Part shown: positions 4,166-53,648 of the stretch, in pieces
How the letters are laid out: each line of letters opens with the position of its first letter
Position numbering within the stretch: the first letter of the stretch is position 1
Source: Paramecium tetraurelia
Taxonomy: Eukaryota
NCBI GenBank assembly: GCA_000165425.1
Contig: CT867998.1
Location: 1 to 64,000 of the forward strand
DNA: 64,000 nucleotides
Direction: 5' to 3'
The notes under the pieces: model-generated
The model's input: the letters and a program-made list of their open reading frames with translations, nothing else
What the model was told of the DNA's origin: nothing
The model's database searches: none
Program-made: the position numbers and the translations under genes

Positions 4166-7100
4166 TCAATTGGCACCATAATATTTAAATAATTATGATA
4201 ATGAACTTTTTTCAGTAAAAATTTGGGCATTTTCCATTTCGCACTTCATCGCTTACATAACATAGTATTTAGGTATTGTTTTCAATCTATATAGAGTCTT
4301 TGAATTCTAAAAAGATATAATTGTATTGATACATTATCGCTATCATTTTATAATCTTAAAGATGAATCAATAAAATTATAATAAAAGACATTTCCACCTT
4401 TTATTAATATGATGAAATCGTTGTAATTTGATGAGAAAGAAGCATTTAATATACCTACTGCATAATCTAGCATAAACACAATCTAATATTGATCATTCTT
4501 TTCTTATTTGTTAAGCAAATACATTTAATAATCTTACTCTTAAATTAATAAGTGAGTCCCATTTTCGGAAAAGAAGACATGAATAATGTTGTATGAGAAA
4601 AATATGTTTTGAACAACATAAGGGTCCTCTAAATTGTGAATATCTATTATTTTAACAACTCCTTATCTTTTTTCGAAGCCTTATTCTTGTTCTCCTCCTA
4701 CACCTCCACATGCCATCGTATTATTATTCAAATCAAATGAAACAGAAAAAATCTGAAAATTTAGAATTTTATTTTCATATTAAACTGTTTATTAATTTGT
4801 AGACAAGATAAATTATTTTTTGTCATTACAAAATGCAAAGAAAGTGTTATCAAATTTATAAGAAATCACTTGTGACCAATTATATTCTGCTTTAAGACTT
4901 CTAACTTCCGTCCGAAAATCGACATTATATATTTACTTTACTAAGATAGTATCTCTCCCTGAATATGCTAGGAACTCACCATCTGTACTAAAAGCGATAG
5001 CTAGTCCATAAGGAATTTGAAAATAGTCGAATAAGCTTAGTTACTGGCCATTAATTGAGAATAATACAAAGTGATTGATAAAACCTTTTTCTTCCCTCAC
5101 GGCTAAAAAAATTGGTAATTTAGGAGAGAATACCACATGATTAAAGGGATGATTGAATCCCATCTATATATAAATTGGGACAGTATCAGCATTTCGAATT
5201 ATTGGATCAAATTTAAGTTAGTTAGTCTCATTTACCTGATCATACTCAAGAGATACAATAGATGATGAATCTGGAGAAAAATTAAATGTCTACCAAAAAG
5301 TAAGCACAAAAGATTAGACTACAGTTTAATCATCCAATTTCCAAATTACTACCCTTGGAGTTATATTTATTATTGTATTTCTTTCTGCTTCTTCAAAACT
5401 TATGTTGTTTAATGGAAAATATGATGCTGCTATGTATTTCCCATTTGGTGAAAATGAAACTTATAGGCATTCCTAGTTTTTGCATTCATTAGCAACAAGT
5501 TAAGTTTTGGAGTAAATTTTAAATTCTATATTTTAATTGCCAATTTCCTATGTGAACTAAACCTTCTTCTCCAATAATGTGTCATAATTAGAATAAAACA
5601 TTTCCCATAATATTATTTGATCTCCTTCATTGGATGCTATAATTAATTGTCTATTAGGAATCCAAGTACAGATATGTTAATTATCTAATAAATTTGGATT
5701 ATATTTGATCCTTAAGGGAATGGCAATTTAACCTGACTATTTTATATACCAAACTTTAATAGAATCATCTTAGCTTCTTGATGCAAGTAATTATCCATTG
5801 TAAGAATATTCAATTGACAAAATCTATTGAGAATGATTCAGTTTTTTTAATATAACTCCTTTTTCTTGATCGTATAAATTAATACTCCTTGGTTCTCTAA
5901 TCCCAACATAAGCAATTTAATGAACTTCAGTAGAGATGGCAATACAGACTATGTCACCGAATTCTGAATCGATGACGATTTATTGATTGAAATTATTGTT
6001 TGCATGGATAATAGATGGCACTTTCCATGTCTTCATTAGTTCTCGATCGTCTGTTATAAGTGCTAATAATTCTTGTTTACTGGAAAAGAAAATATTCTGA
6101 AACGAATAGATATCACGAATTATTTATAAGCGTTGTAAATCGTAAATGTTGGAACAGTCCCACAAAATAATACCATGACAAGACTATTTTGTAACCATTA
6201 AATTACCTTTTGGGGAAAAGCAGAATTAAGTTTGTTCATTTAAAATGTTGATGCATTCATCGTTCGGGCAATCCCAAAATATTATTTTGGATTAAAGCTA
6301 TAAAATGATCAACTACCCATTATATGAGAATTCTGCTTTTAATACTTCATTATCAAAAATTTAATAATACTTATTTGGGTTTATATCATTCATATTATAC
6401 ATTTTGATGTTCTCTTTAATGTCATTCCATTAGGCAATAACATTCATTTCAGGATTAATATTATAACACTGGGTTTTTTAATAGCCTTTAAATATCCTAT
6501 TAATACAATTATCTTGAGTATTCCACAGCACTAAATCCTCTTGAAATTATATGCCAATCTCCAGTTTGGAGTTGAATGTTATGAACTACAAAATTTAAAA
6601 TCTGAAATTTATCCTTTAAGTTTCAATTAAATTCTGGCCTTACCAGTTATAAAAAATAACATCTTCCATATTAGCAATTGCAAAGGTTTTTCCACTCAAT
6701 GAAGCATTAAATAAATCAGCTTCAATTGATTATACCAGAGATTCTCTCGAACTTTATAATTCAAATAATCTTAAGTTCTTATTCCCTTTAAACAAGAAGT
6801 AACTATTATTTTCATTAAATGCTAAATTGTTTATTTAGAATATAGGTTATGGGGAATGTCTGATTAGATGTTCTATTCCAATGTACTTAGTTTAAAGTGA
6901 TTATCCGTCAGCCCTCCAACATCTTAACCATCCATCAGGGTCAACTATACCCAATATTTCTGCATCAGGAGAAAACTGCAACGCATTGACAGGAGTGAAA
7001 TCTATTGGTTTCTGATATAGGATGTTCTCCAAAGTTTTAAAATCCCTCAAAATGATCTCTTTTTAAGAACAAGTTGCTACATATTATGTTTATTTGCCGA

Positions 7101-10100
7101 AATGGATATTAGATATTGCTACAGATTGAAAATGATCCTCCTTATCTGGGTTTTACACTTAATTAATTAGTTCGTAAGTTCTACAATCCCATTTTTTCAA
7201 CACTAGAACACTCAGAGAAATCATATAGTTTCCATCGGGAGTAAAAACTACTTATTCTACTTTCTCATTTTGAAAAAGGTTTGCAGTTTCTGCTATTTAA
7301 ATTTTATACCACTTCACATTATTTAATTTAGCAAAGTCAAAGTTACATCTATTGATAATCACATTTCTAAAAACAGATCCACTTAAATTGCAATTAAAAA
7401 AACTGATTCCAGAAATATCTGTATCTGATAATTCAATTTTCTAAAGGTCCTCTCCCCCAAGATTGAAATTCAGGAAAGATATCAAATACATGCAATTTGA
7501 TGAAACCCGCATATATTTAGAATCTTAGGACATTTTTATGATTTTAATTAGTTTTTCCTTGATTTTCTCAGTTTTTCGAAGGTCATCCTTCAAAACATTT
7601 AAGGCCCCTGTAAAATTACTACCTGTCAGATTGATTTGATTTAAATCACTATTACATATTATATTTATTTATCTTTCATCGATTAGAAGCCTTTTCAAGA
7701 AGCGAGCGAAATAATATTCTTGTATAATTTTATATTTAAAGCTACAGATATTTCCTTATTTAATAACTAAATAAGGATTATAGTGCAGTTATTCACACTC
7801 GCTTTATTGTTCCTCTATTTCATCATCCTCTTGTATTAAACTCAATTTTGTTGCTATAAGGTTGTTTATTGTCATTTAGAATGCCAAATTTTCACATTTA
7901 GTGTCAATCTCCTAGAGTACTTGATGAAATTCATATGATTCTATCTCATCTTCAAGTTATTTAGCATACTTTATGTTTAATTCATCTACAAAGGTTGCAA
8001 TAATTTAATACATTGTCAAATTATTAGCCCTCAATGCATCAATCAAAAGAATTGAATCATTTTTGATAGCGAAAACATCCTTATCCATTTGAATTCCTCT
8101 ATTATCACCCTTTAGAATATTGAAATATTGATATTATTTAAAAAATTTTTATTATTCCAATATTTATAACGCTTTCGATAGGTTTTCGTCAATACCTTCA
8201 AATTCAGGATCCATTTTTATCTACATTAAAGATGGGATATTAAGAGATTACGTATAACGATAGCTTTGAAGTTATGTGGAAGAGTTTGAATATTTCTACT
8301 TCAACCTAGAATAGGATTTTATTAGTTATTCTTTAAAATATCTATCTTTGAATGCGGTTCGCAAAGTGGACAATTACAAAACAAAAATTTCTAACTATAA
8401 TGGTGTTTAAGTGAGATTTTCAAATTGATGATTCTTTATAATTTCCATATAATTCATTGTACTTCTTAGTTTAGATATATCTTAAACGATCTTTTAAAAA
8501 AAGTCATGTTATATATTTTCTATCATTTTACTCCTTATGATTGCTTATTATAAATCCAAGTAATTATCATTTGGATTCATTAGATATTTGAGTTCACGCT
8601 CTTGTTGCTTAATGAATTTCTAAATTTCTTATTCAAGGTCTATCCAGATATTTTCAAATCCTTCATCGTTTTAATGTTATTGGATAAAATGATTAAATAA
8701 TATCTTTTTGATGCTTATTTAGTGATTCAATTAAAAATATTGTTACCTTTAATCATCATTAAATGGCAATAATTAGATTTCAGTAATCAAATTTATGTGG
8801 TTATGATTATAGGAGAAATATAACTAGTAATTTTATAAGTCTTTAAGTTCAGATCTTGCTGAAGCAACGAATTTCACTGTTTTACCAATCAATTTGATAT
8901 TAATATCTAAATGTTGAAAATTAAGTTTAATTAAATTCTATTTTACTATGTCTATTTTTACTTCATCTATATCATCTAGTAAAAATAACACCTTTATTTA
9001 TTGGGAGTTGACTGCCTTTACAAAATCATTATAGTATTAATCATTTCTAAATATCTACTTTAATTTGCCAACAAATAATTTATTATTCTCTGAGTATGGG
9101 TCTGAAGATAAAGATATAAAAATTGGAATCCATCTCTATGATTGGTATTGTTCCCATAATTTATTTTATATAATTCTTAACTCTCGGCTTTTGCCAGATC
9201 CCTAAGAACCAAAAAGTAATAACACTTCACACCATCCTTAGGCATTCTAAAGAAACTCATTGACCTCATGATAACACTCGAATTCAAATTTTTTTAGGGA
9301 ATTTACATAAATTAACTCTTAAGAGATTTTCTCTTATTCATTATACTTTTTAATTTTGAATCTTTATTCAACATATATTGGATTTATTTAACATTAACAG
9401 GTATCAATATGCATCTTTCTGCTCAATTATTCTACTTTATAAAGTTAAATGCACTCTTAATAACCACTAGCCGGCTCAATTCTTTTCTCGACAATTTTGT
9501 TGTTTTTTTTTCTTTGCTGCTTTTGTTGATATTCCATCATTGAGACGAATTGCTATATTTCTTAATACAGCTTCAAAGCTTCATCTTCTTTTCTATCCAA
9601 AAATGTCATCAGTTCCTATGTATTTTTAAAATTATTTATCAAATCATTAAGATCAATCATGTGATTTTTAGTTTCCTCATCTAACTATCTTACTTCAGCT
9701 TATAATGATTGCACATCTTCAAGCAATTCTTTCAACACACTAACTAAAGTATTGCTAGTCAACTCTTTAATTGATTTCTTCCAGTCTGGCAGAGTATTTT
9801 TTTTGAATAATCTAGAACTAGAGTCTTTTTCAAGAATCTAACTGATCACAAACTGTTTTGGCATATATTCACATGCGATTTCAGTTTTAAGAATCACTTG
9901 TGAATTTCTTATAAAACTTTTATTCATTATACTTTCAATTTCAGATAAATAGCTCAATTTTTTATTGATAAAATTGAGATCATCATTATCTAATTTCTTG
10001 TTTTTAATTTTTGGTAATGTAAAATAGTTTAATTCTAATTTATTTAATTCATCAAATGTTATTTGTTCATTTATATCAGGAATTCTGTTCGCATTATTCA

Positions 10101-12177
10101 TTTCAATATTTCTATTTAATCCATCCAAATTTAAATCCTTAATTGATTTTGTCAGATCCTAAAAAGCTTGGTTAAGTATGAATTTTAATTACTCTTATTT
10201 AGGTTCCTGAATAACATCATATATATATCTATTCACCTTTTCTTTTAAAATAATTAATGATTAAATATTAACGTTAACATCTTCTATATTCATTTTTATT
10301 TCTTATTCTTAGAAATTGAGATTGTCCTTCAATATCTTCCAATATTGAGTTTTAGGAAGATCTAGCCTATCCATTCCTTTCCTATATTCATCTAAAATTT
10401 TTTTTTTGTTCAACTTTTGCTTGCTTCTGTTTTTCAAAATCAAGTCCCATTTGAAACAGTTTATTTATAATTTTTGTAAATCCTCTAATGAAATTAATTG
10501 GTCAGATCTCAGTGTAAGGCTTGTGTCGTTATTGATTTAACTTATTTCCTTTTAATTTAAAAAGCCATTGGAAAATCTTGAAATTACCATTGATATAGAT
10601 GATTTGATAGGAACTTGTATATTGATGACTTCTTTGCCTTAAGGTGGATTGCCGCCACTAGCCAATCTTTTTTGTCTTTATTTCTTGGAGAACTGAAAGT
10701 ATTAATTTTCTTTCTGTGTTCTGAGTATATCAATCAAAGAATAAATAATTTATGGAAACTTAATTTTTTCACAGGTCTTAATGTGGCCATTAGGATTTTT
10801 AATTTATTTTTCTATCTCAATTATCTATTCAAATATCCTTTAATTACTCTGGTGAATTTCCTTAATATATTCTTCAAAACATTTTTTCTCGAAATCCTGG
10901 GATTAATTGGTGTTTACTAATTTAAGTTTTTATACTTCCAAAGCAATAGATTAGTAGATTTCATTTGTTATGTAAACAAACTTAAAGTATTATTTTTTCA
11001 AACTGGTCAACAGCTATTAATTTGATTAATTTTTAAACTTCTAAATTAGTAAATTTATTTTGTTAATCACATATTTTAAGGATTAACTTTACTTTGATAA
11101 AAATTTGATTGCTTCATAATAGGGATCAATTATTAGGTTTTCTCTGTTCTTGTCCTTTACTTTAAGTTCTGTGTAGAATTTCAAATAGGATTCGATTAGA
11201 AATTTTGATAATTCCTAAAATTTATTATGAACCAACATAGAATTCTTATTACCTTAAATAGGTTGATATTGTGCTTAAGCGATTAGATCGAATATTATTT
11301 GGATCCAATATTTGGTCAGAAGTAAGGGGTATTCATGTGATAAATGCTAAGAAAAGGTGTATTCAAGAATCTTTATCGGAATTTGAAGTGTTGGTTGATT
11401 TGGGATCTAAACCTACAAGATTACGGCCCATTTTATGATTTAATAAAAGCAATGCAGTTCAAAATGATTGATCTCTTTCTCTTTCTCATTCTCATTTGAA
11501 TCAAAATTATAATTTAATAATTGTTGATTTTCTTGAAACAATATATGCACATCGAATGTTTTTCGACTATTGAATAAATCCTTCCGAGTCAATTAATGAG
11601 GAGATTCATCCTTTCGACAATTTTTATAGGCAATTTCAATAATTGATATTTCATAAATGAAAAGATTTTGTGCTTTTGCTGCTTTTTACAGGTTTTCAAT
11701 AGCAGTAGCATATTAATTACGATGTTAATGATTCAAAAAGGAATTTTTTAGTCTTATTTGAAATTAATATATGATGTAGAATAAATCAAGACAGAATTAA
11801 ATCATTTCATGAGCCTTAATAGTTTAATGTTTGATAAAGGCTTATAAGGATGTGAGACAATCCAATTGGATGTTATAAATATCATTCCCATTTTCCATTG
11901 TAATTAAATAGCACATATTTGTTCTAATATATAGTTGTTACAAATTTTTATTCTAACTGAATAATGTGCTCATAACTTCTATTGCTTCTTCCTAAAATTA
12001 AGGAGCCTCTTCAAATTTTTATGATAATAGCACTAATTTATTAGCATTTTCCTTCAAAGCAAAGATAATGTTGTCTTTATTCTAGGCCATTAGCCTTCTT
12101 TCCTTTTTTATTAATTTAGCGCAGCATGCACCTCCTCCTCTCAGATTCATTTGTATATAATCTTGCAAGAAGCCCAT
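4166..12177 (-). CDS. Giant NACHT NTPase + pentapeptide-repeat + WD40 protein (NWD/NLR-like STAND protein), ~2661 aa
   Basis: Starts MGFLQDYIQMNLRGGGACCAK. Walker A LLLFGSQGSGKS (~9187-9222), Walker B VLFLLDDIDE (~8962-8991), FVASAR, pentapeptide-like NLGGEDLQKIELSDTDISGISFFNCNLSGSVF (~7370-7465), then many degenerate WD40 units. One 26-nt intron (4332-4307) restores the frame to LFKYYGAN-TGA. Frame was consistent at all spot checks, but not every codon was checked. Confidence 0.88.
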
Positions 12178-12893
12178 TAAAATTTAATAATTATAATAAT
12201 CAGATGTAAGATTATCCAAATAATATTTGTAAAGAAATATTATTGTAATAAGTTGAGATCAAACAAAGTGTAAAGCCAAAGAATGCTCTCACAAGCAGAA
12301 TCAATGTATTAAATCAACAAAACTCAATCAAGTTATTCATCTTCTAACATATTAGAGAATAATTAAAAGATGTTATTAATAATAGAATTAAATTATAATC
12401 TTAGACTTAAACAATTCTTTAAATTCTATTGCTAAATGTTTAAATCAAATTTAGGTTTAACAATAAATTTGATTTATATTCTCTTTTCATTTTTGAGAAA
12501 TTTAATTATTGGTATTCTTTACAAATTAAAAAATAATAAATATAATAGATCATGCCCATAATATTAAATGAAACTTATTTATCTTTAATAATTCTATAGA
12601 TTTAATTGATAATATAATAAAGAATCTAATTAGTACTAAATTAAGAGGGTTTCATTCGAAAATGTTTGATTCAAAATTTGACAAAATACAAAAATATTCT
12701 TGATTATGTAATTAATTCTTTTTAATACATTTGAATGGAAGAATATTTAATTTTAATTCTCTATTATTAATCAATACCTTTATATATAGAAAAGAAAATT
12801 TAACAATAACATTAGTAATTATATAATACTATTAGTTTTATGTTAGTTAGAATATATATAATTATCATAAAATTTAATAGAAATATAATTATA

Positions 12894-14113
12894 ATGTTAA
12901 AATTTTGTTATTAATCACAAGAGGTTTATACTTTTGAAAATTATGATAACTTGATGAATTCTTTTAGTTTAGATGATTTTCAATCAGGAAAATTTGATTC
13001 GCCTAATAATATGATTACTTTCAATATAAATCACAGTAGATGTATAAGACTAAGTGATCTCCTATTTTACATTGTAATTATATATACCTTCATTTATTTA
13101 TAGTAAATAGACTTTGTTAGGATTAATTGCTTCATTTATTTCTATCTATATTAAAAAAGGTAGAATTAATAGAAAGCTAAGGACTTGAACATGAATATCT
13201 GGATATTAATAGAATTTGGCTGTATTTTAAAGAAGATAGTTAATATCCAGGTCTAATTTATTAAATATTACATTATTCAATTCATTTCACTGGATATTCA
13301 TGTTCATTAAAGTATGGGTTTGGAGTAAAATAAAAAGCATCTATTTAAATTCAAGAAATCATATGTTAAATCATTGATTCATGTTCAAATAGAATAAAGT
13401 AGTAAAAAAATAAAGATTAGAACAAATAAATATGCAAAGAGATATTATAACGAATTTAAGCTTTATGTAAAACAAACTCAAGTATTCCAGTAATCATCCT
13501 TTATCTTGAAAACACAATATGTTTTTATAAAGAAGATAAATATATTGAGAATAAGCTTGTTTAATTATTGAATCTTGATGATACAGATATTAAACCAGAA
13601 AGATAAAAAGTGATTGGTGAAGTTAATAATATCATAAAATAAATTATTGAAATTGGAAATACATATGGATAAGTTTGTGTTGAATTATTATTGTAAGATG
13701 CAATTACAAAAATAACTCAAAATTTGACAAATCTTTCATTCAATAGATAGAGTTATGAAATCAATGTTTAAATTAAATTCAAATAATTAAAAGATAAAGA
13801 ATAAGAACTACAAATATTAGTAGAACAATAAATTAAAAACTAGATAATATATTTTATTCAACAGTACGAAAAGGATTTTAAATTTGAAATAGATGAAGAA
13901 GAAATCATATAACTTCAATAATGTATCGTTAATTCTATACTTTAATCTCCACAAGTTAGACATTATTATAATACGTATTAGTATCAAAAGGACTCTGAAA
14001 TTAATAATTATATATTTTCAGCAATAACAAAAATTTAATAACAAATTCTAAAAGATGGAGTAGAATCAATATTCATATACAAAATATTATAATTGATTAA
14101 CGATTTGATATGA
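12894..14113 (+). pseudogene. Uncharacterised pseudokinase-like family member A1, frameshifted by a 10-nt deletion
   Basis: Near-identical reverse complement of 18711-19940, but lacks tcaatttggt just after the 30-nt intron (~13123). Length is 1220 vs 1230 nt, and the shifted frame reaches TGA at ~13569. Confidence 0.8.
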
Positions 14114-15180
14114 ATTCTAACAATTTAGCTATTTAAACTTATTATTATTTACTTGTTAAGAATTTTTATTTTATTTTTTAGATAAGATATGATATATTGT
14201 ACTAATCAAAATTAGTTTTAGATTTTACTAGAATTATGTTCAAGTGTTAAAATTTTATCAACATGACAACATGAAAGAGTATTAAGTTAAGAAAATAATT
14301 ATTTTAATATTTAAAACAAAATATCAACTTCTTCACATGCATCCTCATTAGAAATTTTCCAAAATATTTTGAAAATAGTTTATTTACAGGGTAGTTTCGA
14401 ATTTCTATTCTATTCTAGTTTTAATTAATTTAATAATTTTTATTAATTTTAAAGCATTAATACATTACAATATTTACATTTATGAAATAGAGTCTACTTA
14501 TAAGAAAGCCTTTTAATTGTACATTATCATTTAATCATTCAAATATCCTTATATATTATAGTGTAGAATGCAAATAGAAATGAATCATTATAATTTAGCA
14601 AGCACCTAACATTGGAACTACTTCTTAGTAGCTATTAATTTATAGTTTCTCTATATTTCCATTAATAAATTGAATTGATATAATACGCAAATCATTAATG
14701 GTAACAATTTAAGTAGTTTGAGAATAAATACAAAGTATTTTAAATAGTAAAATTTTGATAGTAATTTTGTTCTTTGTAAGCAGATATGTGGAATATAGGA
14801 AAAATGGATTGCTAAGTAGATTTTGAAAAATAATAATAGAAAAATTTCTATTGAAAAACAAAGAAGAGAATTAAATTTGATTAGCTTAACTGTAATCTAT
14901 AATTATTGATGTTTAGGATATATTCAAATAGGATATTCAATTAAAATAACTAAATGAAGAATTTAGATTGGTTTCCTAATTTTTGGACAGGAGAAAAAAG
15001 GAGTTAGAATTCTAGAATAGGAACAAATGTAATTTAATTATCCTTTCGCAGAAAGGCAATCATAATAAACATAGTGGCAACTAAATAGGAATACGATTAT
15101 TGCAATAGCAGAGGAGAAGAAACTGAATAAAATAGAAATGAATTTATATAATTTCAATAAATGTATACTTTAAATATTAA

Positions 15181-17169: not shown

Positions 17170-18710
17170 ATGTTTTGATTATATTATTCTTTTCTTTTTT
17201 AACTCCTTAAAATTTTACTGTTTCATTTTTATTCTTACTACTCCTCAAAATGACCATGCTTGTAACTCTCGCAATTATACTATGCTTCATAAAATTAATT
17301 CATTAATTGCACAATCACTCATCTGATTGATTGTTAATAAAATCTTATATAATTTTATGATCATTCTTTGCTTCCCTGCTGGTATATTTATATTTATAAT
17401 CAATATTCTTTTGCGAATTCCTTATTTTATATTAAAATATTTGATATTTTTGTTTCTCATCCAAATACCAACTTATTCAAAGAATCAGAATACAAGATTG
17501 ATAAATTTGAGATTCTCTACATTATTTTCTCTATTCTTATATAACTATATACTTGTACTTATTAAAACTCTTAAAATCTATAACCAATCAACAGAACAAA
17601 AGAATTACAATTGTTTCAATATAAATCAAATTTCCATCGTTTTAACAAGAAATGGTACTTGAATTACCATAACTTAATGGTTGTTTATACACTATATCAA
17701 AATTTAAAACAGTCGAAATTATATATTTAGAACCTTATCTAAAATCAAGGACAGAATTCATATCGCTGAACTATTCAAATATATAATATAGATTCTCAAT
17801 TAAAACTGAATAAAATTACTAGAAGTGTGTGAATCCATAAGTAATTTTGGCAGATTAAGGAATCCTTTTAAAAATGATATTTAGATGAAATGTTCCATAA
17901 AAATCCAAGCACTTTATCATCACTCAGCTTGGACCAATTAAAAGAAAATTGATTTTGGATTCCATTCAAGAACTCAATAAAACGTAGACTTAAGCCATTC
18001 ATCACTTTGAATTGCTAATCATTAGATCATTTAAATGAATGTGTAAATCATAATTAGAAAAAAATTTGAAGGAGATTAACTAGCCAATTATTATAAACAG
18101 ATCTTTCCTTTGGAATGATTCAATAGTCAAATATTTTTGGCTATTAAATTAAAGAAATATTACAAATAATTAAAAATTTTCGAGCAAATACTAATTTGCT
18201 TTACTATAATTATTAAAGGACGTATAAAAAATGATTATATATTTCATGTTATAATAAGGAGAACTTTAAATAGAATTAATATAAACTCAAATGAGCTTGC
18301 ATCTGAGCCTTTAGAATGATTTCAAAAAAATAGTAATTTTGAGTTTAATTTCTAAACTTAAAATTGTATAAAATTTTAAAGATATGTATTTTATATTGAA
18401 TTGCCTCATTTTGTATGAAATAATAAAGTATAAATTTCATTTGTCTAATATTAATTTTTTCTTATTGATTAAATCTTAATTAATGAACAAAGTTTCGTTC
18501 AAAATTCTAATATTAAAGAATCATTAATGTTCAAATGTCTAATCCATCCTTAATAGCTAAAGTTTTCTAGTATATAAAGATTCCACATCTTTAGGGCATT
18601 AACCTCTTTCAATAATATCAGAAGCATTTGATTTGTAAAATGCGCTTTATTTATATGATAAAAATAAAAATTGTTAACAAGTAAATAATAATATCCTAAA
18701 TCATTAAAAT

Positions 18711-19940
18711 TCATATCAAATCGTTAATCAATAACAATATTTTGTACATGAATATTGATTCTACTCCATCTTTTATAATTTGTTATTAAATTTTTCCTAT
18801 TGCTGAAAATATATAATTATTAATTTGAGAATCCTTTTGATACTAATACGTATTATAATAATGTCTAACTTGTGGAGATTAAAGTATAGATTTAACGATA
18901 TATTATTGAAGTTGTATGATTTCTTCTTCATCTATTTCAAATTTAAAATCCTTTTCGTACTGTTGAATAAAATATATTATCAAGTTTTTAGTTTATTGTT
19001 CTACTAATATTTATAGATCTTATTCTTAATCTTGTAATTATTTGAATTTATTCTAAGCATAGGTTTCATAACTCTATCTATTGAATGAAAAATTTGACAA
19101 ATTTTGAGTTATTTTTGTAATTGCATCTTACAATAATAATTCAACACAAACTTATCCATATGTATTTCCAATTTCAATAATTTATTTTATGATATTATTA
19201 ACTTCACCAATCACTTTTTATCTTTCTGGTTCAATATCTGTATCATCAAGATTCAATAATTAAACAAGCTTATTCTCAATATATTTATCTTCTTTATAAA
19301 AACATATTGTGTTTTCAAGATAAAGGATGATTACTGGAATACTTGAGTTTGTTTTACATAAAGCATAAATTTGTTCTAATATCTCTTCGCATATTTATTT
19401 GTTCTTATCTTTATTTTTTTACTACTTTATTCTATTTGAACATGAATTAATGATTTAACATATGATTTCTTGAATTTAAATAGATGCTTTTTATTTTACT
19501 CCAAACACATACTTTAATGGACATGAATATCCAGTGAAATGAATTGAATAATGTAATATTTAATATATTAGACCTGGATATTAACTTTCTTCTTTAAAAT
19601 ACAGCCAAATTCTATTAATATCCAGATATTCATGTTCAAGTCCTTAGCTTTCTATTAATTCTACCTTTTTTAATATAGATAGAATTAAATGAAGCAATTA
19701 ACCAAATTGAATCCTAACAAAGTCTATTTACTATAAATAAATGAAGGTATATATAATTACAATGTAAAATAGGAGATCACTTAATCTTATACATCTACTG
19801 TGATTTATATTGAAAGTAATCATATTATTAGGCGAATCAAATTTTCCTGATTGAAAATCATCTAAACTTAAAGAATTCATCAAGTTATCATAATTTTCAA
19901 AAGTATAAACCTCTTGTGATTAATAACAAAATTTTAACAT
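18711..19940 (-). CDS. Uncharacterised pseudokinase-like family member A2, intact (399 aa)
   Basis: MLKFCYQSQE..SRCIRLSDLLFYI, then a 30-nt intron, then ..GQLL..EHEYLDINRIWL..IHFTGYSCPL...LLINDLI-TGA. 1230-30 = 1200 nt in frame. Confidence 0.85.
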
Positions 19941-22125
19941 TATAATAATATCTCTATTAAATTTTATGATAATTATATATCTTCTATCTAATAAAAATAA
20001 ATAGAATTATGTAATTACTAATGTTATTGTTAAATTATCAATACTTTATATTTTCTCTATATAATTATTCTAGTTTTAAGTAAAATCTTGAGAATTAATC
20101 TTAATGTTATTCTTCCATTCTAAATTATCCTTATAGAAATAGTTTGATTTGATTATGTTAGATATATTAATCAAAAATACTCAAAATTTGCATAATCATT
20201 CGTTTGAATATGCAATATACAATTTTATTTGATTCTTTTCATGTATAATAAAGTGAATTAATTTTGTAAATGTATGATACATTATATTTGTTGTCTCCTC
20301 CAAAGTAGTATTTTAAAATTTCTTTTCATCCTTAATAATTCATCAAAATTATATAGGTTTGAACAGTATTTGATTAGACAAGAATTTATAAATATGATTT
20401 TGCCATTTTCTTTTTATTTATTTATAAAGATCTTCATTGTAAAATATTCAGAGAAGGCAATAAATTATATTTAGTAGATGCTTAAAGTTACAAAAATACC
20501 ATCTTCATAGCAGAAGCACACATTATTTGATTAAATGTGTACCAAAAATATAAATACAACTCTTCAATGTAGAATGAAAAAGGAGAAAATTTTATCATAT
20601 GCAACTCTGTCTTCAAAAGAGATAGGATTGCTAATTGGATCTAAATAATGCATTCTATGATTTATTTAGTTTTGAAGTGAATTCCTTTAAGTTCAAGTAT
20701 CTTTGGTAGATTTTATCTGTTTATGGTATTAAATCATCACTGGAATTAAGAAAATACTAATGAAACTTTAGAAATTTTGAAAAAATCTTAACTCTCATAT
20801 TTCCTTTTAGATATGAGATAAGAAGGGTGAAAAAATTGTAGATTGTAAATAATGATAACTATTTTTAAATGGGACAACCCTCACTTTGCAGTTATGATTA
20901 ATAGTTTCTATAATTATTTGATCCAGATATCTCTTAAGAATTATTATTTAGTGCAAATGGTGAATAAAATTCCATCATAATTGATGGTGTATCGGTAACT
21001 GGTAATAATTTGGTGTTAAAATTATTATCTCAATAGAGTAAAATAAGTTATTTGTAAAATTAGTTTAAGTGTCATTTCGAAAATTACCTCACCATTTTTA
21101 TCTGGATATTAAATATATCATCCATAATGCATTATTCAACCTGCAGTTTATTCAAACAATGATAAATCAAGAAAGTAATATACTAACTACTCCTAAGTCC
21201 TCCTTAATTTATTTATAATACGTTAATAATGTAGAATATAGAGAACGGCTATAGACTTTAGATTTTATTTATTTTTATATTTAAAGGGATGCGTTGCTCT
21301 TTTATCCATCAGAAAAATATATAATAACATCTTGTAATATCATTTTAGATGATGAAAAGTATTTCCCAAAACTAATACATTCTATATCTAAAAAGAAAAA
21401 GACATAGATATAATTAATTTAAGAAATTCTATTTAGGTATGATAATTTACAGAGTCCAAGGTTAACGGAGTAATTATAGTGTTTAGCTTTTGAATGGGTT
21501 ATTATTATTTTAGTTATAATATACAAAAGAGAAATGAGATTGAGTGTAAGAATTTTTTCAAGCCAAATCTTATAATTAACAAACAAAAATGTAAAAAAAT
21601 CAAATCTGGACTCCGAAAAGAGTTGGAGAATTTTTTTCTGGTATTATTATAGTCCTTTTTACACTTAGTAATTGCGCTATTTACAGATATTTAAGGTTAA
21701 CTATCCTTAGATCTCAATGTTATCCGAATTTTCGGAATGTTTAAAGAAAAGAAAACTATAAAACCTTTATATATCACATCTTAATTTTATTTGATTTATA
21801 TTTTGGAGGGATATAGAAACCATTAGTTTTTACTAGAAAAAAATCGTTCTTGTCTTCTTCTCAATTAGAGAGCAATAGTACCCAAATTATTTTCTGCTAT
21901 GTATTTGAATTTTATTATTTCTGTCAATAATTATATTAGATAAAGACCCAATAATAGATCTAACTAAATTTATTAAATATCTGTTTGACATTATTGGAAA
22001 ATTTTAAATACTGAGAGATTCATTTTGTTAACAAATTTCATTGCAAATATTAATTTAAAACCATGTATGTATAATTTAACATTTTAATAGAAATAACTTA
22101 ATATTAATTAAATAAAGAAAGGAAA

Positions 22126-25596: not shown

Positions 25597-28121
25597 TCAT
25601 TGGACTAGCAGAACAATGGCAAATATCAAAAAAGACCAGATGAGACTATTACTGCTTTCACATGACATTTATCCAATACTTCCACAATCTGGCTTATTAT
25701 ATGCTTTAGCTTCTTCAGGGGTTGGGCATGAAGAATTGGCATCCTTCTTTATGCATTCTAATGTTGTTGAACCAACAGCTTTGGCAGAAGAAACCTCAGC
25801 ACCATCAGTTGAAGTTGTAGTAGCATCTTCTAAAAATCTGAATCTACGGGTTGAATTTGGATCTTCAAGTTTACCATTGACTGAGAATTCAACATTATTA
25901 GCGAGGATATCAACATTTAGAGTATAAATAGTTTATCCAGGTTATTTTTGCTACGAAGTTGGCTTCAATTTTTTATTAACTCCATCTCCTGTTATAGTAA
26001 CATCAGCATCTCCAACTTTCCATTTCTCAAATCCGGATTATTTGACTCTTTAAACAACATAGAAATTTTAACCAGCATAAACTTATGGCTATTCAACAAG
26101 AGTTGAACAGGTTTAGTCACTACAAAATCCTACTTCAGTTTCTGCTCTAGAAACACAATTATCTTCAGTTGCACAAGCAGGAGTATCATCTTACGCTTCA
26201 GATGTGGCTTGGGCTGTTAAGACACTTCCATTTAAGTCAACTGCTACAAAGAATGTGAAGAAAAATTAAACTAATTTCTTCTCCTAGATTGTTAGTTTGA
26301 CTGAATAGTAACCAGTATAAACAATCTTATCGGATTATTCATCTTTGAATAACTTGTTATCAATATCTGCATTCAAGATTGTAAATTCCCAAATTCTTAA
26401 TTTTTTATCATCATCATAACTGCTTGTAACTGTTGAATCATCTAATGTTTCACTTAAGAAACTTGGTCTATATCTGTAAATTTATCTATCTATGCAGGCA
26501 TTGGCATTTCCGTCTGATTTAACAAGTGGTTTGTCTTTGTTATCAGGGAATGCCAATTAAACAACAACATCTTTATTATCATTGAAGTCAGCTTTCCCAT
26601 CGAATTTCATTGGAAGCATCCTCTTTCCACCCTCCTATTTGCTTTGAACTTTATCCAAGTTTTCACAGGTTTAAGCAATGCATCTGTCTTTGAACACTAT
26701 TTCGTTATCAGCACAAGTCACTTCAACTTCAACACATTGTTGTTACTATTCTGCATCTTGAGTCCATTATCCTTTTGATTAAGGAGGACCTTAAGGTTTT
26801 TATCCTTAGCCTTGTCCCTAACCTTAGCCTTGTCCTTGACCTTAGCCTTGTCCTTGACCTTGTCCTTAGCCTTGTCCTTGACCTTGTCCTTATCCTTGTC
26901 CCATTTATCCTTATCCTTGTCCCATTTATCCTTATCCTTAGCCCATTTATCCTTATCCTTGTCCCATTTATCCTTATCCTTAGCCCATTTATCCTTATCC
27001 TTGTCCCATTTATCCTTATCCTTAGCCCATTTATCCTTATCCTTGTCCCATTTATCCTTATCCTTAGCCCATTTATCCTTATCCTTGTCCCATTTATCCT
27101 TATCCTTAGCCCATTTATCCTTAACCCTATCCTGTTTATCCTTATCCAAATTGTCCTTGTCCTTATCCCATTTATCCTTATTATTAACCAGTTTATCCCA
27201 TTTATCCTTATTGTTAACCTGCTTATCCTATTTATCCTTATTATTGTCCAGGAGATTATCCTCCTTACTATTAAGAACCAGTTGGTTTTTAAATTCCCCC
27301 TTGTTATTAGGCGCCTCCTGGTTACTAAACTCCACCTTATTATTAAGGTCCCCCTGACTATTAAGTACTACCTTATTATGTGGTTCCACCTGGCTATTAA
27401 GTACTGCCTGCCTATTAAGTGCTTCCTGGCTATTATGCTCCTCCTGGATTTTAAAATCCACCCTATTGTTAGCCTCCTCCTGGTTATTAGGTTCCTCCAG
27501 GTTATTAAAATCCACCTTGTTATTAAGAACCTCCTGGTTATTAAGCTCCCCCTGGTTATTAAAATCCGCCTGGTTGTTAGGTTCCTCCAGGAAATTATCC
27601 TGCAGGTTATTATTAGTTTGTTTATTAAACTTATTAACCAGGAATCTGATTCCCAGGCAAAGTTTATTAACTAGGTTACTATTATTATCCTTATTACTGT
27701 TGTCCCTATTATTGTTGTCCTTATTATTATCCCTATTGTGCTTGTGTTGGTTAACATTTCTTCGCCTTCCCTCCAGTCTATGGACCACCTTATTGTCCAC
27801 CTTATTATCCACCTTATTATCCACCTTATTATCCGCCTTATTGTCCACCTTATTGCATACCTCCTTGTGGTATTCCACCTGATTGTTATCCTCCTGGCTA
27901 TTGACCACCTAAAAATATTATATATTATTAGTTACCAGCAGTATTTTATTATCCTTGTGAACCAGTCGGGGCACCTTATGTTGGGCCGGAGCTTCCAGAG
28001 ACAGCTAAAATGCAGTAGATTTAAAGATCTTACGTTATCCAGGCTAAGAGGCACCTTAAGATAGTTGGGTGAACACTGAAGAGATGATGCAAAAAAGAAG
28101 TAAAATTTTTACGATCCTCAT
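25597..28121 (-). CDS. Secreted, probably GPI-anchored protein with a long Gln/Gly/Pro repeat region and a Cys-containing C-terminal domain
   Basis: Signal-like MRIVKILLLFCIISSVFT and two short introns. Repeats QQGG, QQPGG, GQMGQGQ and GQ, then ~370 aa of globular sequence containing RRFRFLE. Hydrophobic end SSNSLIWSFLIFAIVLLVQ-TGA with no cytosolic tail. Confidence 0.85.
26888..27122 (-). repeat. Coding tandem repeat: 11 x 21 bp (GQMGQGQ) with 42-bp higher-order alternation
   Basis: ccattt recurs every 21 nt from 26901 to 27111. Units alternate ccttgtcccatttatccttat and ccttagcccatttatccttat. Confidence 0.92.
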
Positions 28122-30020: not shown

Positions 30021-31400
30021 ATGAATAACGAGCTTTTGCAATTGTAATTGATTTTATTATCTTCTTCTGTGATCACTCTATTTTATATTTACGACCGAGA
30101 ATTGAATAAACAAAAGATTTCAATCCTGTTCTCTATTTGCAATATCAGCATCTTTATGATTGAGACCAGGATCATTGGAAATTCTTAGTGTAATTATAAT
30201 CTACAACAATTATTAGATTTTACAATAGCAGCAGCGTTCTTTCTGATATTTAAATATTATATCAAGAAGCAAGACGACAGCCACATCCCCCAGATAAATA
30301 TTTTGAATTCATAAGTTCAAAACAACACAGGAAAATAGGATCAAGAAATGGAACAATACCCTCAATAACTACCAGCCATTCAATCAATATATGAGTGTAA
30401 CTAGAACATCACACCCAAGCAGATTCCGAATTCTAATGAAATCAATATTGGACGCTAAGTTACTACCGAGAGGAGTAAATAACCTATTAAACAGGAGTCT
30501 CTAATGGGTTTCTTGGGGGACAAAAGATAGTCCTATGCCAAGAACAGCATAAGCGGATTTCCTTAGAGACAATAGACCAACCAGCTAAACCAAGGTAAGA
30601 ATATAAAAATCTATAAAGTGAACTTCAATGTGATTAAGTTTCAAGATGATTGTGGAGAGATCAAATTCGGTCTTCTCAAGACCTTGAAATCAATTAATTT
30701 TGATTAGCTAGGCAAGGAGATTGAAATCATTTATTAAAATGACAAAACCTTGACGAGATTATTATCGAATATTGAAAAAAAAAGTGGGCCTAGAATGCAG
30801 ATTCTTTATGAAAGTTAATAAGCACCAAATCCTGTCATTAATGAGAATTTAAGAGGTGGTATATAATTTGATTATAGTAATAATAATGACGCAATTTAAA
30901 TTGATGAATAAAAGAAGGTAACATGGAAGAAGATTTTTTAAGTATTAACCTGTTAGATGATTTTAACTTGTAATTTGCTAATTCTAGAATAATGGCAAAT
31001 AAGATAAACTGCATTATTTGCTTTCATTGGTTTAAGATATATATTTGTCTTCTCAAAATTAAAAATAAAGTAATTAGAATTCTCCTTTGAATTCAGGCAG
31101 ATTTTAATATGGAGTTCCCTAGTAGTTTTACCTTTGGTTACTTTATTTTTTTTAAACTTCATAAACCAGAATATCGCAACTTAAATAACTTCCGTTGCCC
31201 AGTTGATCTCAATCATGATTACACTGAAATATTGCAATTCATTATAAGAGTAATTAATATCATTATATTATTTAGACATTTGTATTCAGTATCTTTTTAC
31301 ATACTGTTGTTGGCCACAATTCTTTGTTTTATTTGAAGCGTTACCATTTTATGATATAATTATTTAAGTTTTATTAAAAATTTATTTTATTTTATAATTA
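30021..31400 (+). CDS. Membrane protein with a possible degenerate ubiquitin-like segment; may be decaying, boundaries uncertain
   Basis: Long TGA-free frame from ATG 30021 with N-terminal hydrophobic helices, then LKSINFDQLGKEIEIIYQNDKTL..ENLRGG, then further hydrophobic segments. The 3' end is not resolved. Confidence 0.4.
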
Positions 31401-32163
31401 AATCTCTTTAGATATTTATAATTTTATAAAATGAATTTGCAAATATTTTCTTCTATTTTGATCATGAAGAACCAAACTATTCAGTCTCAAAGTTAACCCT
31501 AGACTCTTAAAACAATCAAGCAAATATAGTATACCTTATTGTGCATTTTTATTCATAAATTAATTATGTTGAAAGTCAAAGATTAGATTTCAAGAAATAT
31601 TTAAAGGTTGATGTTAATTTAGAATATAGGGTATTATAAATAGCTTCTGGGCTTGCCTCCTATAGATAATTAAATTTCCAAATGGCCTTCTAAATAGGAG
31701 ATCTATAAAAAGTATCATGGTATACTTTCGAGAGAATTATTAAATATTATTGAATTGAAAAAGTAAGGTGCTTGTTTGCTTGTGAATTTGAGTTTAATTA
31801 TGTATAAGTTCCACAAAAACCTTAATTAAATCTGTCATTCTGAGTTGTGTGAAGATGCTAGGATGAAAAACATTTTCATTGTTAACTACACTAAGGAATT
31901 GTGCCTGAAGATATTTGATATACCCTAAATATGAATAAATATGTCAGGTAATAACTATTTATATAAGGATATTTAACCTTAAGCTCTCCTATAATAGACA
32001 TTCAGCATTTTAAATTGATTGAAACTTTGATTAAATATTTCCAAGTGGTCTTCAATCTAATTGGTGTGATGTAAAGTTAAGATTGACCTTGTTAATTAAC
32101 CTTATAATATTTTATGTTGAAAATCATTTTAATCAATTGTTTAAATTTGTATTTAAATCCAGA

Positions 32164-37231: not shown

Positions 37232-39111
37232 TCACCTTTTTAATAGTCTTTTCTATAAAAGTTTCTCGTCCTTCGGTATTCTGCCAAACTTGTCTTGGAC
37301 CTACCAATCAAAAATCACTCCCGGGTTAGAGAGGAATTGCAAAGCGGCATCGTTGCCAACCGACACAGCCAAATGAGCAACAGTTCTGTTGTCCTCTGTT
37401 CTGTATTGGGTGAAATCTCTTTCACCAGCTTCGTAAAAGAGATTGAGCATCTCCTCCTTGCCATTCGCAACATCCTGCATCAAGAGTTGGGTTAACTCTT
37501 TAATTGGAGCAATCAATTTGCCTTGGAATCTCAAGAGCAACTAGATCATCTGCGTATTCTTGGCCATTACGGCTTCGTACATGGGACTATGTTTCCATCT
37601 ATCTACATTGTTAACAATCTATGAGCATTTCCTCAAAATGAGTTCAGCAATCTCCAACGATCCTTCCCTTGCAGCCACATGTAATATGCTTCTCTTGTCA
37701 TAGTCTTAAGCTTTATAATTGATTTCCTATTTTTAATATAGACCTTACAATCTTTGACAATTTCATCGAAGACAGTTTCCTCTTCTGAACACAAATCTGA
37801 CACAAGATATTTGGAAACACTAGATCTTTATTCAAATCTATCTTAGAGTGTTACTGTTTGATGGCTGATGACAAGGCCATCAAAAAGGGTTCAGTCTCAG
37901 CCGCACCGCCAGACTCGGTCAACTCCCCTCTGATATCCCTTTGGAATTCCTCCTCTATCTCATCAACGTCGTCAGTCTGGCCTAATAGATACCCCAGTTT
38001 GGTAAAGGCTGCTTATGATGTCATGTCTCCTCCGCTTATACTAAAGATGAATGAGATGAATATGATACACTCCCATGTTCTCAAATATGATGCCTGTCTC
38101 ATAGAGCATTTCGACTTAGGATGTATGACATTGGGAGATGTTGACTATGACTACTCCTCTTTTGGCTGCCTGAGCGATTTCATTACAAAACTTCTCCTCT
38201 GTTTACATATTGCCTGCTCCATATGTCTCTATCACGACTCCTTTCAACTTTTCGTTCTTGAATATCTCATTTAGAGTGACATGATTTAATAAGGGATTCA
38301 GACGTATCAAACTGATATTCGTGCAGAATTTCTTACTCACTTAGAGATTCTCTTCGTTGGGATTCTTTAGGATGATATCCCATTTAATGCTAATGTTCAC
38401 TCCGAAATATCCTAGAGGAGTGAATTTGGGAGAATCAAATGAATCCAAAGAGGAAGAATTCACTTTCTAAGCTCTATTCCCTCTCAACAATTTATCCTAA
38501 AAACATATTAATACTTCTGGGATGGTGAAATGTCCAGCTATGGTCAGGGCATTCAGAAAATTAGTAAACCCATCATTTCTCGGTTGTGATAAAGGAACTT
38601 GACTGCCTGTCAATATCACTGTTTTGGATAGGTTTTGGAACATGAAGGATAAGGCACTTGCAGTGTATGCCATTGTGTCTGTTCCATGCAGAATGATGAA
38701 GCTGTCATATTGTTTATAGGCTGTTTCGATCCTCTCTGCTATGGTTACCCAATCATCTGAATTCATGTTCGAAGAGTCAAGCAACTTCTCCAATTCCTCC
38801 ACTTTAAACCATATCCTTCGGTTAAAGGCGGTTATAGGAGTAATTAGAAAATCGTCAGTAGCCTTGAAGTAGGTGTAATCCATGTCACAAGAGAACGGGT
38901 TGTTTTAAAGGAAGTTTTTTAGAGCACCCGTTTTTGTGACATATCCTGTTTAAGATGGAAACATTGATATGGTTCCACCGGTATTCAAAATCAGCACCTT
39001 TCGAGGCTAGTCACTCAATTTCTCCTTGATGATATCATTATGGTTCTGCATATCAATCACCAAATGCGATTTTATTTTGGTCACATTTTGTGGATCGTCG
39101 TCGACATACAT
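37232..39111 (-). CDS. ASPG: Type I L-asparaginase / 60-kDa lysophospholipase with C-terminal ankyrin repeats
   Basis: LILNTGGTISM, HGTDTM, TGSQVP, RGNRA, ETYGAGN and GDMT motifs. Ankyrin-like LHVAAREG and RTVAHLAVS. Short introns. Confidence 0.93.
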
Positions 39112-45385: not shown

Positions 45386-46742
45386 ATGAGTATTTAAGCT
45401 GTGAATTACGAGGTGGAAGATATGGGTCGCTATTTCAAATCGTAAAAAAAATGAAATCATTCTTAGATCAAAGAAGAAGTACAAATGGACATTCATGTTG
45501 GAGGACAAGCAACACATGTTGGAATTAGAATTCTCATATCTCAGTGGGAAGAGAAGACTGGTGTTGGACGGCAGAGTACTACACGAAAGCATGTAAAATG
45601 TGATATCTATTATCAGGATGCTCACCTCCTCATTCCAGTATCCCTTTACTCTGGAAGGATTTGCTTTAAACGTGATTTAACAAGGGGATGCGTTTGAATT
45701 GAGAATCAATAATAAGGTCTTCTCTCATCTATACACTCAATGTAAGAATCTTGTTTCCCTCCCCTAGAAAAAACAAAGAGCGAGTTTGTGTACGATGAGA
45801 AAATCAATAATACCAATAAAACGGACAACAACTTCTATTCTGAGCCTCCCAATTTTAATACCCAATTTTCCAACAATAATAACTTTCAAAACAATTCACA
45901 GTATATTATAAATCATCATATTTCATTAGAAAAATTAATTTAAATATTAAATTTGAAAACCCCAAGGACACCAATCCCATCTAATAAAAGACAAGCGTGG
46001 TATAATAGACCAAGTATGGAATCTTAATTTATTCTAGAACATCCACCACCTTTGGGTAGCCAGGAGCATTTGAAGAATTTGAATAGTTCGGTCAGGTGTC
46101 CAAAACCTCCAATAATCCATTTGGAGATTCTTTCCAGGTTTCAGGATTTTCCTCAGGCCAAGCAGTTTAGTAACAATAAAAAAGTATCATTTATGTATCA
46201 TATAAAAACAGAGGTGGACTTATTAAATTTAGATGATGATGTGCCATAATAAAAGGCAGTCAATCCACCATAATAGGAGTTTCTATTTGAATAATAATAA
46301 TAATAATAATAATAGGAAAAAACTAATATACCTCAATAAACTAATTTATTTGATGCCTTTGGTAATGGGTGGAATTAACAACAATAATAACAATAACAAT
46401 AAATTCCATAACAATAATAAAACATGTTTTAATAACCAACTTAGGTTCCACAACCATTTGAGTATTTATCTCTATTCTATTTTTAGATCTTTTAATTAAA
46501 TGGGCTAAAATACATAAGGATTTTAAAATCAATAGTAATAGGGTGGATTCCAAAACTCTCATGCTTTTGGATAAGACTTTCCCTAAGCTCCCCAACAATA
46601 ATAAAATTTAAATATCTTAAATTTGTATGGCAATCAACCACCAGTTGTTGGAAATTTAGCCTATTCAGCATTTCCTTAAGTTCAATAATACAATTAACCA
46701 GTGCCCTAGTCATAGCCTACTCCATTTGATCTGTTCAAATGA
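45386..46742 (+). CDS. FAIM-like beta-domain protein with a Gln-rich, NPF-containing disordered tail
   Basis: KYKWTFMLEDKQHMLELEFSYLSGKRRLVLDG resembles FAIM1. The tail has AFEEF, NNPFGD, DLLNLDD and poly-Q, ending TPFDLFK-TGA. Several short introns. Confidence 0.65.

Positions 46743-51618: not shown

Positions 51619-53648
<2,030 letters not shown>

Follow-up and report, generated by a model that had tools for sequence, protein, structure and literature searches.

Tethering to membranes by N-terminal acylation is known for various signalling proteins, some NLRs among them. Src-family kinases and G-alpha subunits carry dual-acylated N-termini that begin Met-Gly, are myristoylated co-translationally, and follow the pattern G-x-C-(C) with basic residues; plant RPS5, NOD1/2 and NLRP3 are NLRs that are N-terminally acylated or palmitoylated. 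NLRP1 and CARD8 present an N-terminal bait to pathogen proteases, and FIIND autoproteolysis together with N-degron degradation frees a CARD fragment. Short motifs may also be cut where no ubiquitin body is attached, as LXGG-specific viral papain-like proteases and adenain-type enzymes do, the latter at (M/I/L)XGG-X sites. In BID, myristate is attached to an internal Gly once a protease has uncovered it, an established mechanism (Thinon et al. 2014, PMC4200515). Here we analyse a stretch of 64,000 nucleotides from Paramecium tetraurelia (contig CT867998.1, positions 1 to 64,000; the window), in which a NACHT-WD40 gene on the minus strand encodes a protein that begins with a short leader, followed by the ubiquitin-tail-like sequence LRGG, Gly-Ala-Cys-Cys and a basic patch.

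We propose that residues 10-28 of this protein, a soluble STAND NTPase of NACHT-WD40 type, may serve as a conserved N-terminal module for membrane targeting, with the pattern [LM]-N-L-R-G-G / G-[AG]-[CF]-C / ... I-K-K-x-x-R. A conserved anchor made of S-acylated cysteine and the basic patch, whether or not the leader is cleaved, is the likeliest of the readings weighed below, and we hold it tentatively.

An invariant hexapeptide behind a variable leader

The gene is read with the ciliate code (code 6), in which TAA and TAG encode Gln and TGA is the sole stop, and the reverse complement of 12177..12094 gives residues 1-28: MGFLQDYIQMNLRGGGACCAKLIKKERR. The earlier note on this DNA had described an LRGG|GACC motif at the start of the protein, and it stands there on the minus strand, identical in the public protein. 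Its box, 12110-12177, corresponds to residues 1-22, and the peptide that it quoted extends to about 12100. LRGG occupies 12144-12133, Gly16 12132-12130 and Cys18-Cys19 12126-12121. The segment divides into four parts, in which pLDDT is the predicted local distance difference test score of a model described below:

12151..12177, minus strand: variable leader MGFLQDYIQ, residues 1-9, of fixed length, with Met1 as its sole invariant residue; coil in the model, pLDDT <50
12133..12150, minus strand: hexapeptide resembling the ubiquitin/NEDD8 tail, residues 10-15; MNLRGG in P. tetraurelia and P. octaurelia, LNLRGG in P. pentaurelia and P. primaurelia
12121..12132, minus strand: Gly16-Ala-Cys-Cys, a candidate myristoyl-Gly (only with the leader cleaved) and candidate S-acylation cysteines
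12094..12117, minus strand: basic patch KLIKKERR, residues 21-28, with I23, K24, K25 and R28 invariant

Residues 10-15, [LM]NLRGG, match LxLRGG, which we take to be the tail of ubiquitin, NEDD8 and ISG15. The match is exact in the two species with Leu10, and Met replaces Leu in the other two; this residue (M/M/L/L in P. tetraurelia, P. octaurelia, P. pentaurelia and P. primaurelia) had been missed by the earlier note.

At the composition of this protein, LRGG has a probability of 2.1e-6 per position, or about 8e-5 over a single protein's first 40 residues. Paramecium has about 40,000 genes, and a few N-terminal LRGG sequences per proteome are therefore expected by chance, so that a single occurrence proves little. 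The six-frame translation of the window contains LRGG three times, and only the present case lies near the start of an open reading frame (ORF). The other two serve as chance controls: one is residue 276 of a 637-codon ORF (30021-31934, plus strand), far from its start, and one, at 45406 (plus strand), lies in an 82-codon open stretch with no preceding Met. The 2661 residues of the tetraurelia protein contain a single CC, at 18-19.

Full-length homologues were found in four species, P. tetraurelia included, the others being P. octaurelia, P. pentaurelia and P. primaurelia. Whether residues 1-400 or the NACHT region 940-1400 served as the query, the search gave three clusters, identical in both cases (P. 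tetraurelia itself, P. octaurelia and P. pentaurelia), and the P. primaurelia protein is a member of the P. pentaurelia cluster; neither of these protein searches found a paralogue. A HMMER search with residues 1-392 against 1.84 billion representatives recovered only the P. octaurelia protein and a 79-residue fragment from an unnamed Logan assembly, 48% identical to residues 175-245 (E 4.6e-7). The fragment shows that some unlisted assembly contains a more distant homologue; it does not reach the N-terminus and is excluded from all counts. No further homologue was found in an alignment search over proteins of 738-2105 residues, and among metagenome contigs 588 pattern matches gave 0 confirmed cases. 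By these searches the gene is a singleton confined to its lineage, and no paralogue of it is detectable.

The four proteins begin as follows:

N-terminus of P. tetraurelia: MGFLQDYIQMNLRGGGACCAKL
N-terminus of P. octaurelia: MGFQPDYMQMNLRGGGAFCSQF
N-terminus of P. pentaurelia: MDINPGHMNLNLRGGGGCCGFL
N-terminus of P. primaurelia: MDINPGHMNLNLRGGGGCCGFL (same as P. pentaurelia)

Their full-length alignment has 2825 columns, 41% of them invariant. P. tetraurelia and P. octaurelia are 75% identical, P. tetraurelia and P. pentaurelia 47%, and P. pentaurelia and P. primaurelia 95%; judged from these identities the four homologues are in effect two deep lineages, 47% identical. Invariant in all four are M1, N11-L-R-G-G-G16, C19, I23, K24, K25 and R28, and each protein has LRGG once, always at residue 12. 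The run NLRGGG (residues 11-16) is the sole invariant run longer than three in the first 100 alignment columns. Over the whole protein only 3.2% of 6-column windows lack any variation, and there are 27 invariant runs of at least six. Columns 1-10 contain one invariant column, a level as low as in only 13% of 10-column windows; leader residues 2-10 are constant in length with no invariant residue at all. Thus, an unconstrained leader of fixed length adjoins a hexamer that ranks among the best conserved in this protein. The earlier note had made its proposal depend on conservation of the motif in paralogues; in the homologues found, NLRGGG is invariant in four of four while the leader varies, so that the motif withstands this check as far as these proteins allow it. 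Its GACC element fared less evenly: G16 and C19 are invariant, and the Cys pair is not, because C18 is present in three of the four and P. octaurelia has Phe there (GAFC), which leaves it a single Cys. Conservation raises the motif above chance. The argument as a whole takes this conservation together with the adjoining Gly-x-Cys-Cys and basic patch, and only two deep lineages support it.

Translation might also start at an internal Met (M10 in P. tetraurelia and P. octaurelia, M8 in P. pentaurelia and P. primaurelia), in which case most of the annotated leader would belong to the 5' untranslated region (UTR) or to DNA further upstream. The mature protein would then begin with MNLRGGG... or MNLNLRGGGG..., and this possibility is independent of lipid attachment. 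A Met stands 0-2 residues ahead of NLRGGG in all four homologues, and gene predictors pick the first in-frame ATG, in a code where only TGA stops the frame. The ATG of M10 lies 27 nucleotides downstream of ATG1, and by Cap-Seq the median length of P. tetraurelia 5' UTRs is 19 nucleotides and the mean 21.7 (PMC5485702), so that a transcription start just inside or beside ATG1 would be ordinary for M10. However, Met1 keeps its position in all four proteins, at a distance of exactly 10 residues from NLRGGG in each lineage, and an ATG that is not used is unlikely to stay so fixed. A ubiquitin-like tail would have a hydrophobic residue at P6, which accounts for the internal Met/Leu just as well, and PMC5485702 describes alternative start sites as extremely rare. 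On balance we consider an internal start possible, if doubtful. The identifier GSPATT00029296001 is absent from one text supplement of that paper, and three raw oligo-dT RNA-Seq runs have 0 reads on 11700-12700 and hence say nothing about the start.

Two side observations concern the same region. A 550-nucleotide contig from a run whose type is only guessed to be RNA covers 11700-12175 and ends at the G of ATG1, and contigs cannot show a transcript end. Three runs from different studies contain 0.45-0.47 of the sampled words of 11600-12700, against 1.00 in the runs that contain the stretch in full.

Lipid attachment and the fate of the leader

To assess the acylation context, we coded the N-myristoylation pattern (PROSITE PS00008) as G-{EDRKHPFYW}-x(2)-[STAGCN]-{P}. 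The peptides that begin at Gly16 (GACCAK, GAFCSQ and, twice, GGCCGF) fit it in four of four proteins, and those after Met1 in none: GFLQDY and GFQPDY have a disallowed Phe, and the P. pentaurelia and P. primaurelia proteins start with MD and have no Gly. None of the four thus offers the Gly2 in permitted context of a co-translational N-myristoyltransferase (NMT) substrate, and each has a fitting internal Gly behind a putative protease site. It follows that myristoylation would be possible only after cleavage. The earlier note had placed a lipid signal behind LRGG, and at the level of sequence its context is borne out, although the pattern is permissive, so that the fit is consistent with myristoylation and does not prove it. 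For S-acylation, which has no strict consensus, the context consists of the invariant C19, CC in three of the four proteins and the invariant IKK..R. Our literature searches covered Creative Commons papers in PMC together with bioRxiv, and among these no paper on N-myristoylation or palmitoylation of Paramecium proteins was found by title.

The sequence, its conservation, the fold-less leader and the domain architecture are observed; from this context we infer lipid modification and a membrane location, and processing, if there is any. In the anchor reading that we prefer, Cys19, and Cys18 where present, would be S-acylated beside the invariant basic patch, and the acylated tail would tether the N-terminal helical solenoid, and hence the NACHT switch, to a membrane. 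The ubiquitin-tail-like hexapeptide would belong to the same module, either as a retained recognition or linker element or as a cleavage site. Several points weigh against this reading. The fit to S-acylation is weak evidence because that modification lacks a strict consensus, and P. octaurelia keeps one Cys only. With four sequences in two deep lineages, the conservation is in effect one deep comparison. Finally, the reading leaves unexplained why the exact ubiquitin-tail motif, and not the cysteines, is the best-conserved element.

Cleavage of the leader would explain exactly this. A cysteine protease that recognises only the tail would cut after Gly15, the proposed scissile bond, the leader would be lost, Gly16 would be myristoylated post-translationally and Cys18/19 then palmitoylated, yielding a dual lipid anchor like that of Src or G-alpha, gated by proteolysis. 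This model and the uncleaved anchor share the lipid and the basic patch, and differ on cleavage. It draws on the match of [LM]NLRGG to the LxLRGG tail, invariant or conservatively substituted in four of four, and on the NMT-type context behind LRGG and not behind Met1. The leader varies at constant length, as it should if selection acts on the cut site alone, and BID (PMC4200515) provides a precedent, in which proteolysis uncovers the internal Gly that is then myristoylated.

The structure of the N-terminal region bears on the same model. An AlphaFold2 model of residues 1-392, built on a three-sequence alignment, is all-helical, with 14 helices, a mean pLDDT of 71.7 and a predicted template-modelling score (pTM) of 0.69. 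The first helix is preceded by coil (residues 1-15), and pLDDT is <50 over residues 1-22, so the module is predicted to be an exposed tail. No Pfam family matches residues 1-940 at E up to 10, bar two chance rows, no PDB sequence matches (0), and a Foldseek search of the PDB returned nothing at E <=0.001. The feature following the leader is:

11002..12132, minus strand: all-helical N-terminal domain, modelled over residues 16-392; an ARM/HEAT-like solenoid of no named family

The earlier note had held that the leader has no ubiquitin fold, and this agrees with the 11 residues available before LRGG, the lack of a Pfam match in residues 1-940 and the coil of pLDDT <50. Absence of a fold counts against cleavage by cellular enzymes. 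According to PMC7477763, deubiquitinases (DUBs) hydrolyse LRGG tetrapeptides 'very poorly' and need the ubiquitin body at an exosite, which would make a bare LRGG a very poor substrate for cellular DUBs. The earlier note had also drawn an analogy to Sde2, and here it fails: according to PMC13572447, Sde2 is recognised, and its processing governed, through its ubiquitin-like (UBL) domain, in a two-site interaction that mimics ubiquitin, and the Paramecium leader has no such fold. In the literature covered we found no cellular precedent for an LRGG leader that lacks a fold, and the PROSITE pattern is permissive. Cleavage that gates the anchor thus seems unlikely to us; less likely again is the full chain in which a protease of the cell, or of an intracellular bacterium or virus, cuts the 15-residue fold-less leader by its tail, the lipids follow at Gly16 and Cys18/19, and the protein relocates to the membrane. 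Leader cleavage itself is something that we purely infer.

The helical N-domain would also allow a role for the tail that needs neither lipid nor cleavage. The tail could be a peptide ligand, either an autoinhibitory basic segment bound to the protein's own armadillo-like solenoid or a docking motif. The basic IBB segment of importin-alpha folds back on its own armadillo solenoid in this way. The domain is all-helical, the sole structural rows in Foldseek are armadillo-repeat proteins, several of them with Lys/Arg-rich peptides, and the tail has the invariant IKK..R. The rows are weak, with a best E of 4.5e-3 and TM <0.3, and an Atlas look-up gave ARM/TPR/HEAT-type leads that were all below 0.9. 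The tail has no confident position in the model (pLDDT <50), and a peptide ligand would leave both the Cys residues and the exact LRGG unexplained. We judge this role improbable and retain the S-acylated, basic-patch anchor as our working interpretation.

The NACHT-WD40 protein and its surroundings

The window is AT-rich (GC 0.21-0.38). Read in code 6, the ORF at 4282..12177 (minus strand) has 2631 codons counted from its ATG, 168 of them TAA or TAG read as Gln, against 2658 codons in the stop-to-stop frame. The ATG at 12177-12175 is the first in-frame ATG downstream of the preceding TGA. The public protein has the same N-terminus as the ORF and is identical to it over the first 2615 residues; past codon 2615 the two diverge, and the tail of the public protein maps to 4303..4166. 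The gene and its domains are:

4166..12177, minus strand: NACHT-WD40 gene, whole coding sequence, ciliate code; P. tetraurelia GSPATT00029296001 / XP_001426067.1, 2661 residues
4307..4332, minus strand: single 26-nucleotide intron (GTA...TAG) near the 3' end, placed by the divergence of ORF and public protein; sequence there GTATCAATACAATTATATCTTTTTAG
8731..9225, minus strand: NACHT NTPase, residues 985-1149; Pfam PF05729, 29.6 bits against a cut-off of 26.7
9210-9187, minus strand: Walker A GSQGSGKS, residue 990, motif intact
8988-8971, minus strand: Walker B LFLLDD, residue 1064, motif intact
7288..7449, minus strand: pentapeptide repeats, residues ~1577-1630; PF00805, 27.3 bits against a cut-off of 20.2
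5599..7272, minus strand: WD40 beta-propeller region, residues ~1636-2193; many WD40/beta-propeller Pfam matches, PF00400 at 38.2 bits against a cut-off of 27

An intron joining Met1 to Gly16 was considered and rejected, as no GTA...TAG is seen by eye in that stretch.

The NACHT profile lies above its cut-off, Walker A (GxxxxGK[ST]) is retained in all four homologues, Walker B has the form hhhhDD, and a C-terminal repeat region suited to a 'sensor' follows, with probably an additional propeller downstream of residue 2193. The protein has the features of a STAND NTPase whose N-domain is a helical solenoid. The earlier note had called it NLR-like, and with NACHT, intact Walker motifs, WD40 propellers C-terminal to NACHT and the solenoid, the label is fair. 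Among the Pfam matches in the remainder of the protein there is no membrane or ubiquitin domain. No paper on these Paramecium NACHT proteins was found by title among the papers listed in the literature covered.

The NACHT-WD40 STAND architecture raises the question of whether the ubiquitin-tail mimic could be a decoy that baits tail-only proteases of intracellular bacteria or viruses, cleavage then switching the NLR-like protein on, for example through relocation to a membrane or creation of an N-terminal degron. Tail-only classes include CE-clan Ulp/adenain-like enzymes and LXGG-specific papain-like proteases. The pathogen-protease version of the lipid switch would be such a tripwire, reporting deubiquitinase or Ulp-like activity. 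Beyond the location of the motif, what speaks for it is that the protein is an orphan with no paralogue and with 75% identity between two sibling species, and that viral papain-like proteases accept short LRGG-type peptides, MERS PLpro having been profiled on tetrapeptides (PMC7477763). Yet nothing links the gene to infection, no FIIND (ZU5-UPA) or other autoproteolytic release module occurs among the 19 Pfam families matched, and no literature joining LRGG with a tripwire was found in Creative Commons PMC or bioRxiv. We consider the tripwire very improbable.

A large inverted repeat (12837-14128 / 18696-19997) starts about 660 nucleotides upstream of the NACHT gene; its pieces of 288 and 1006 nucleotides are 96-97% complementary, and its arms lie about 4.5 kb apart. 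The ORFs at 12735-13571 (plus strand) and 18711-19940 (minus strand) lie in these arms and share a near-identical N-terminal stretch, and neither matches a Pfam family. Further along, a 467-codon ORF at 26718-28121 (minus strand) lies in the GC-richest stretch of the window (GC 0.37) and has a hydrophobic start and no Pfam family; it contains long low-complexity repeats, DNKV... and then many DKDKW/AKDKDKW units, and it is to this repeat that the ORFs overlapping it in other frames are due. Ordinary neighbours are an asparaginase (37972-39111, minus strand; PF00710, E 3.6e-60) and an Hsp70 fragment (51916-52854, plus strand; PF00012, E 5.8e-133).

Comparison with known systems

The N-terminus described here is an unusual variant of a known lipid-anchor logic, carried by an orphan ciliate STAND protein. 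What the earlier note had observed is confirmed and conserved, and its interpretation is partly supported, so far from sequence. If the leader is cut, this would be the first known cellular case of a fold-less ubiquitin-tail motif acting as a processing signal; we know of no cellular example of a bare ubiquitin-tail motif used in this way. Outside animal apoptosis, it would further offer a new way to 'cryptic' myristoylation, here in a protist and on a protein of NLR-like type, and to our knowledge innate immunity in Paramecium is almost unstudied. If the leader is uncut, the module would be a plausible and ordinary anchor of N-terminal acylation and basic patch on a lineage-restricted orphan STAND protein. 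The alternatives can be tested directly and cheaply, as the organism allows microinjection, RNA interference by feeding and tagging with green fluorescent protein.

Like Src-family kinases and G-alpha subunits, the protein places basic residues behind G-x-C-(C); their glycine follows Met directly, whereas here it is residue 16. It would share with the acylated NLRs a STAND/NLR switch held at the membrane by lipid, as we propose for this case, and differs from them in its N-terminal domain and its lineage. We know of no acylated NLR with a ubiquitin-tail leader. Unlike NLRP1 and CARD8, it shows no FIIND module, and so lacks a defining part of that type of tripwire.

Precursors of ubiquitin and UBL fusions, such as the ubiquitin-ribosomal fusions and Sde2, resemble it in having a di-glycine tail motif directly before the functional protein, and an LRGG-type tail stands at the junction in all four homologues. 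In those precursors, however, a full beta-grasp domain is bound by the DUB, whereas here nine variable residues precede the hexapeptide. Because the defining beta-grasp fold was looked for before the di-glycine and is not there, the protein is not a ubiquitin or UBL fusion precursor.

L-R-G-G/G fits the site of the LXGG-specific and adenain-type proteases; for PLpro, peptide assays are given in PMC7477763. Their targets are viral polyproteins or host ubiquitin and ISG15, and none of these enzymes is tied to Paramecium here. With BID and other caspase substrates (PMC4200515), the protein has in common an internal Gly that would become an NMT substrate only after a protease has acted, and Gly16 fits the pattern in all four homologues. 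In those substrates the cuts are at caspase sites in animal apoptosis, whereas in this ciliate protein a ubiquitin-tail motif, 15 residues from the start, would be the site.

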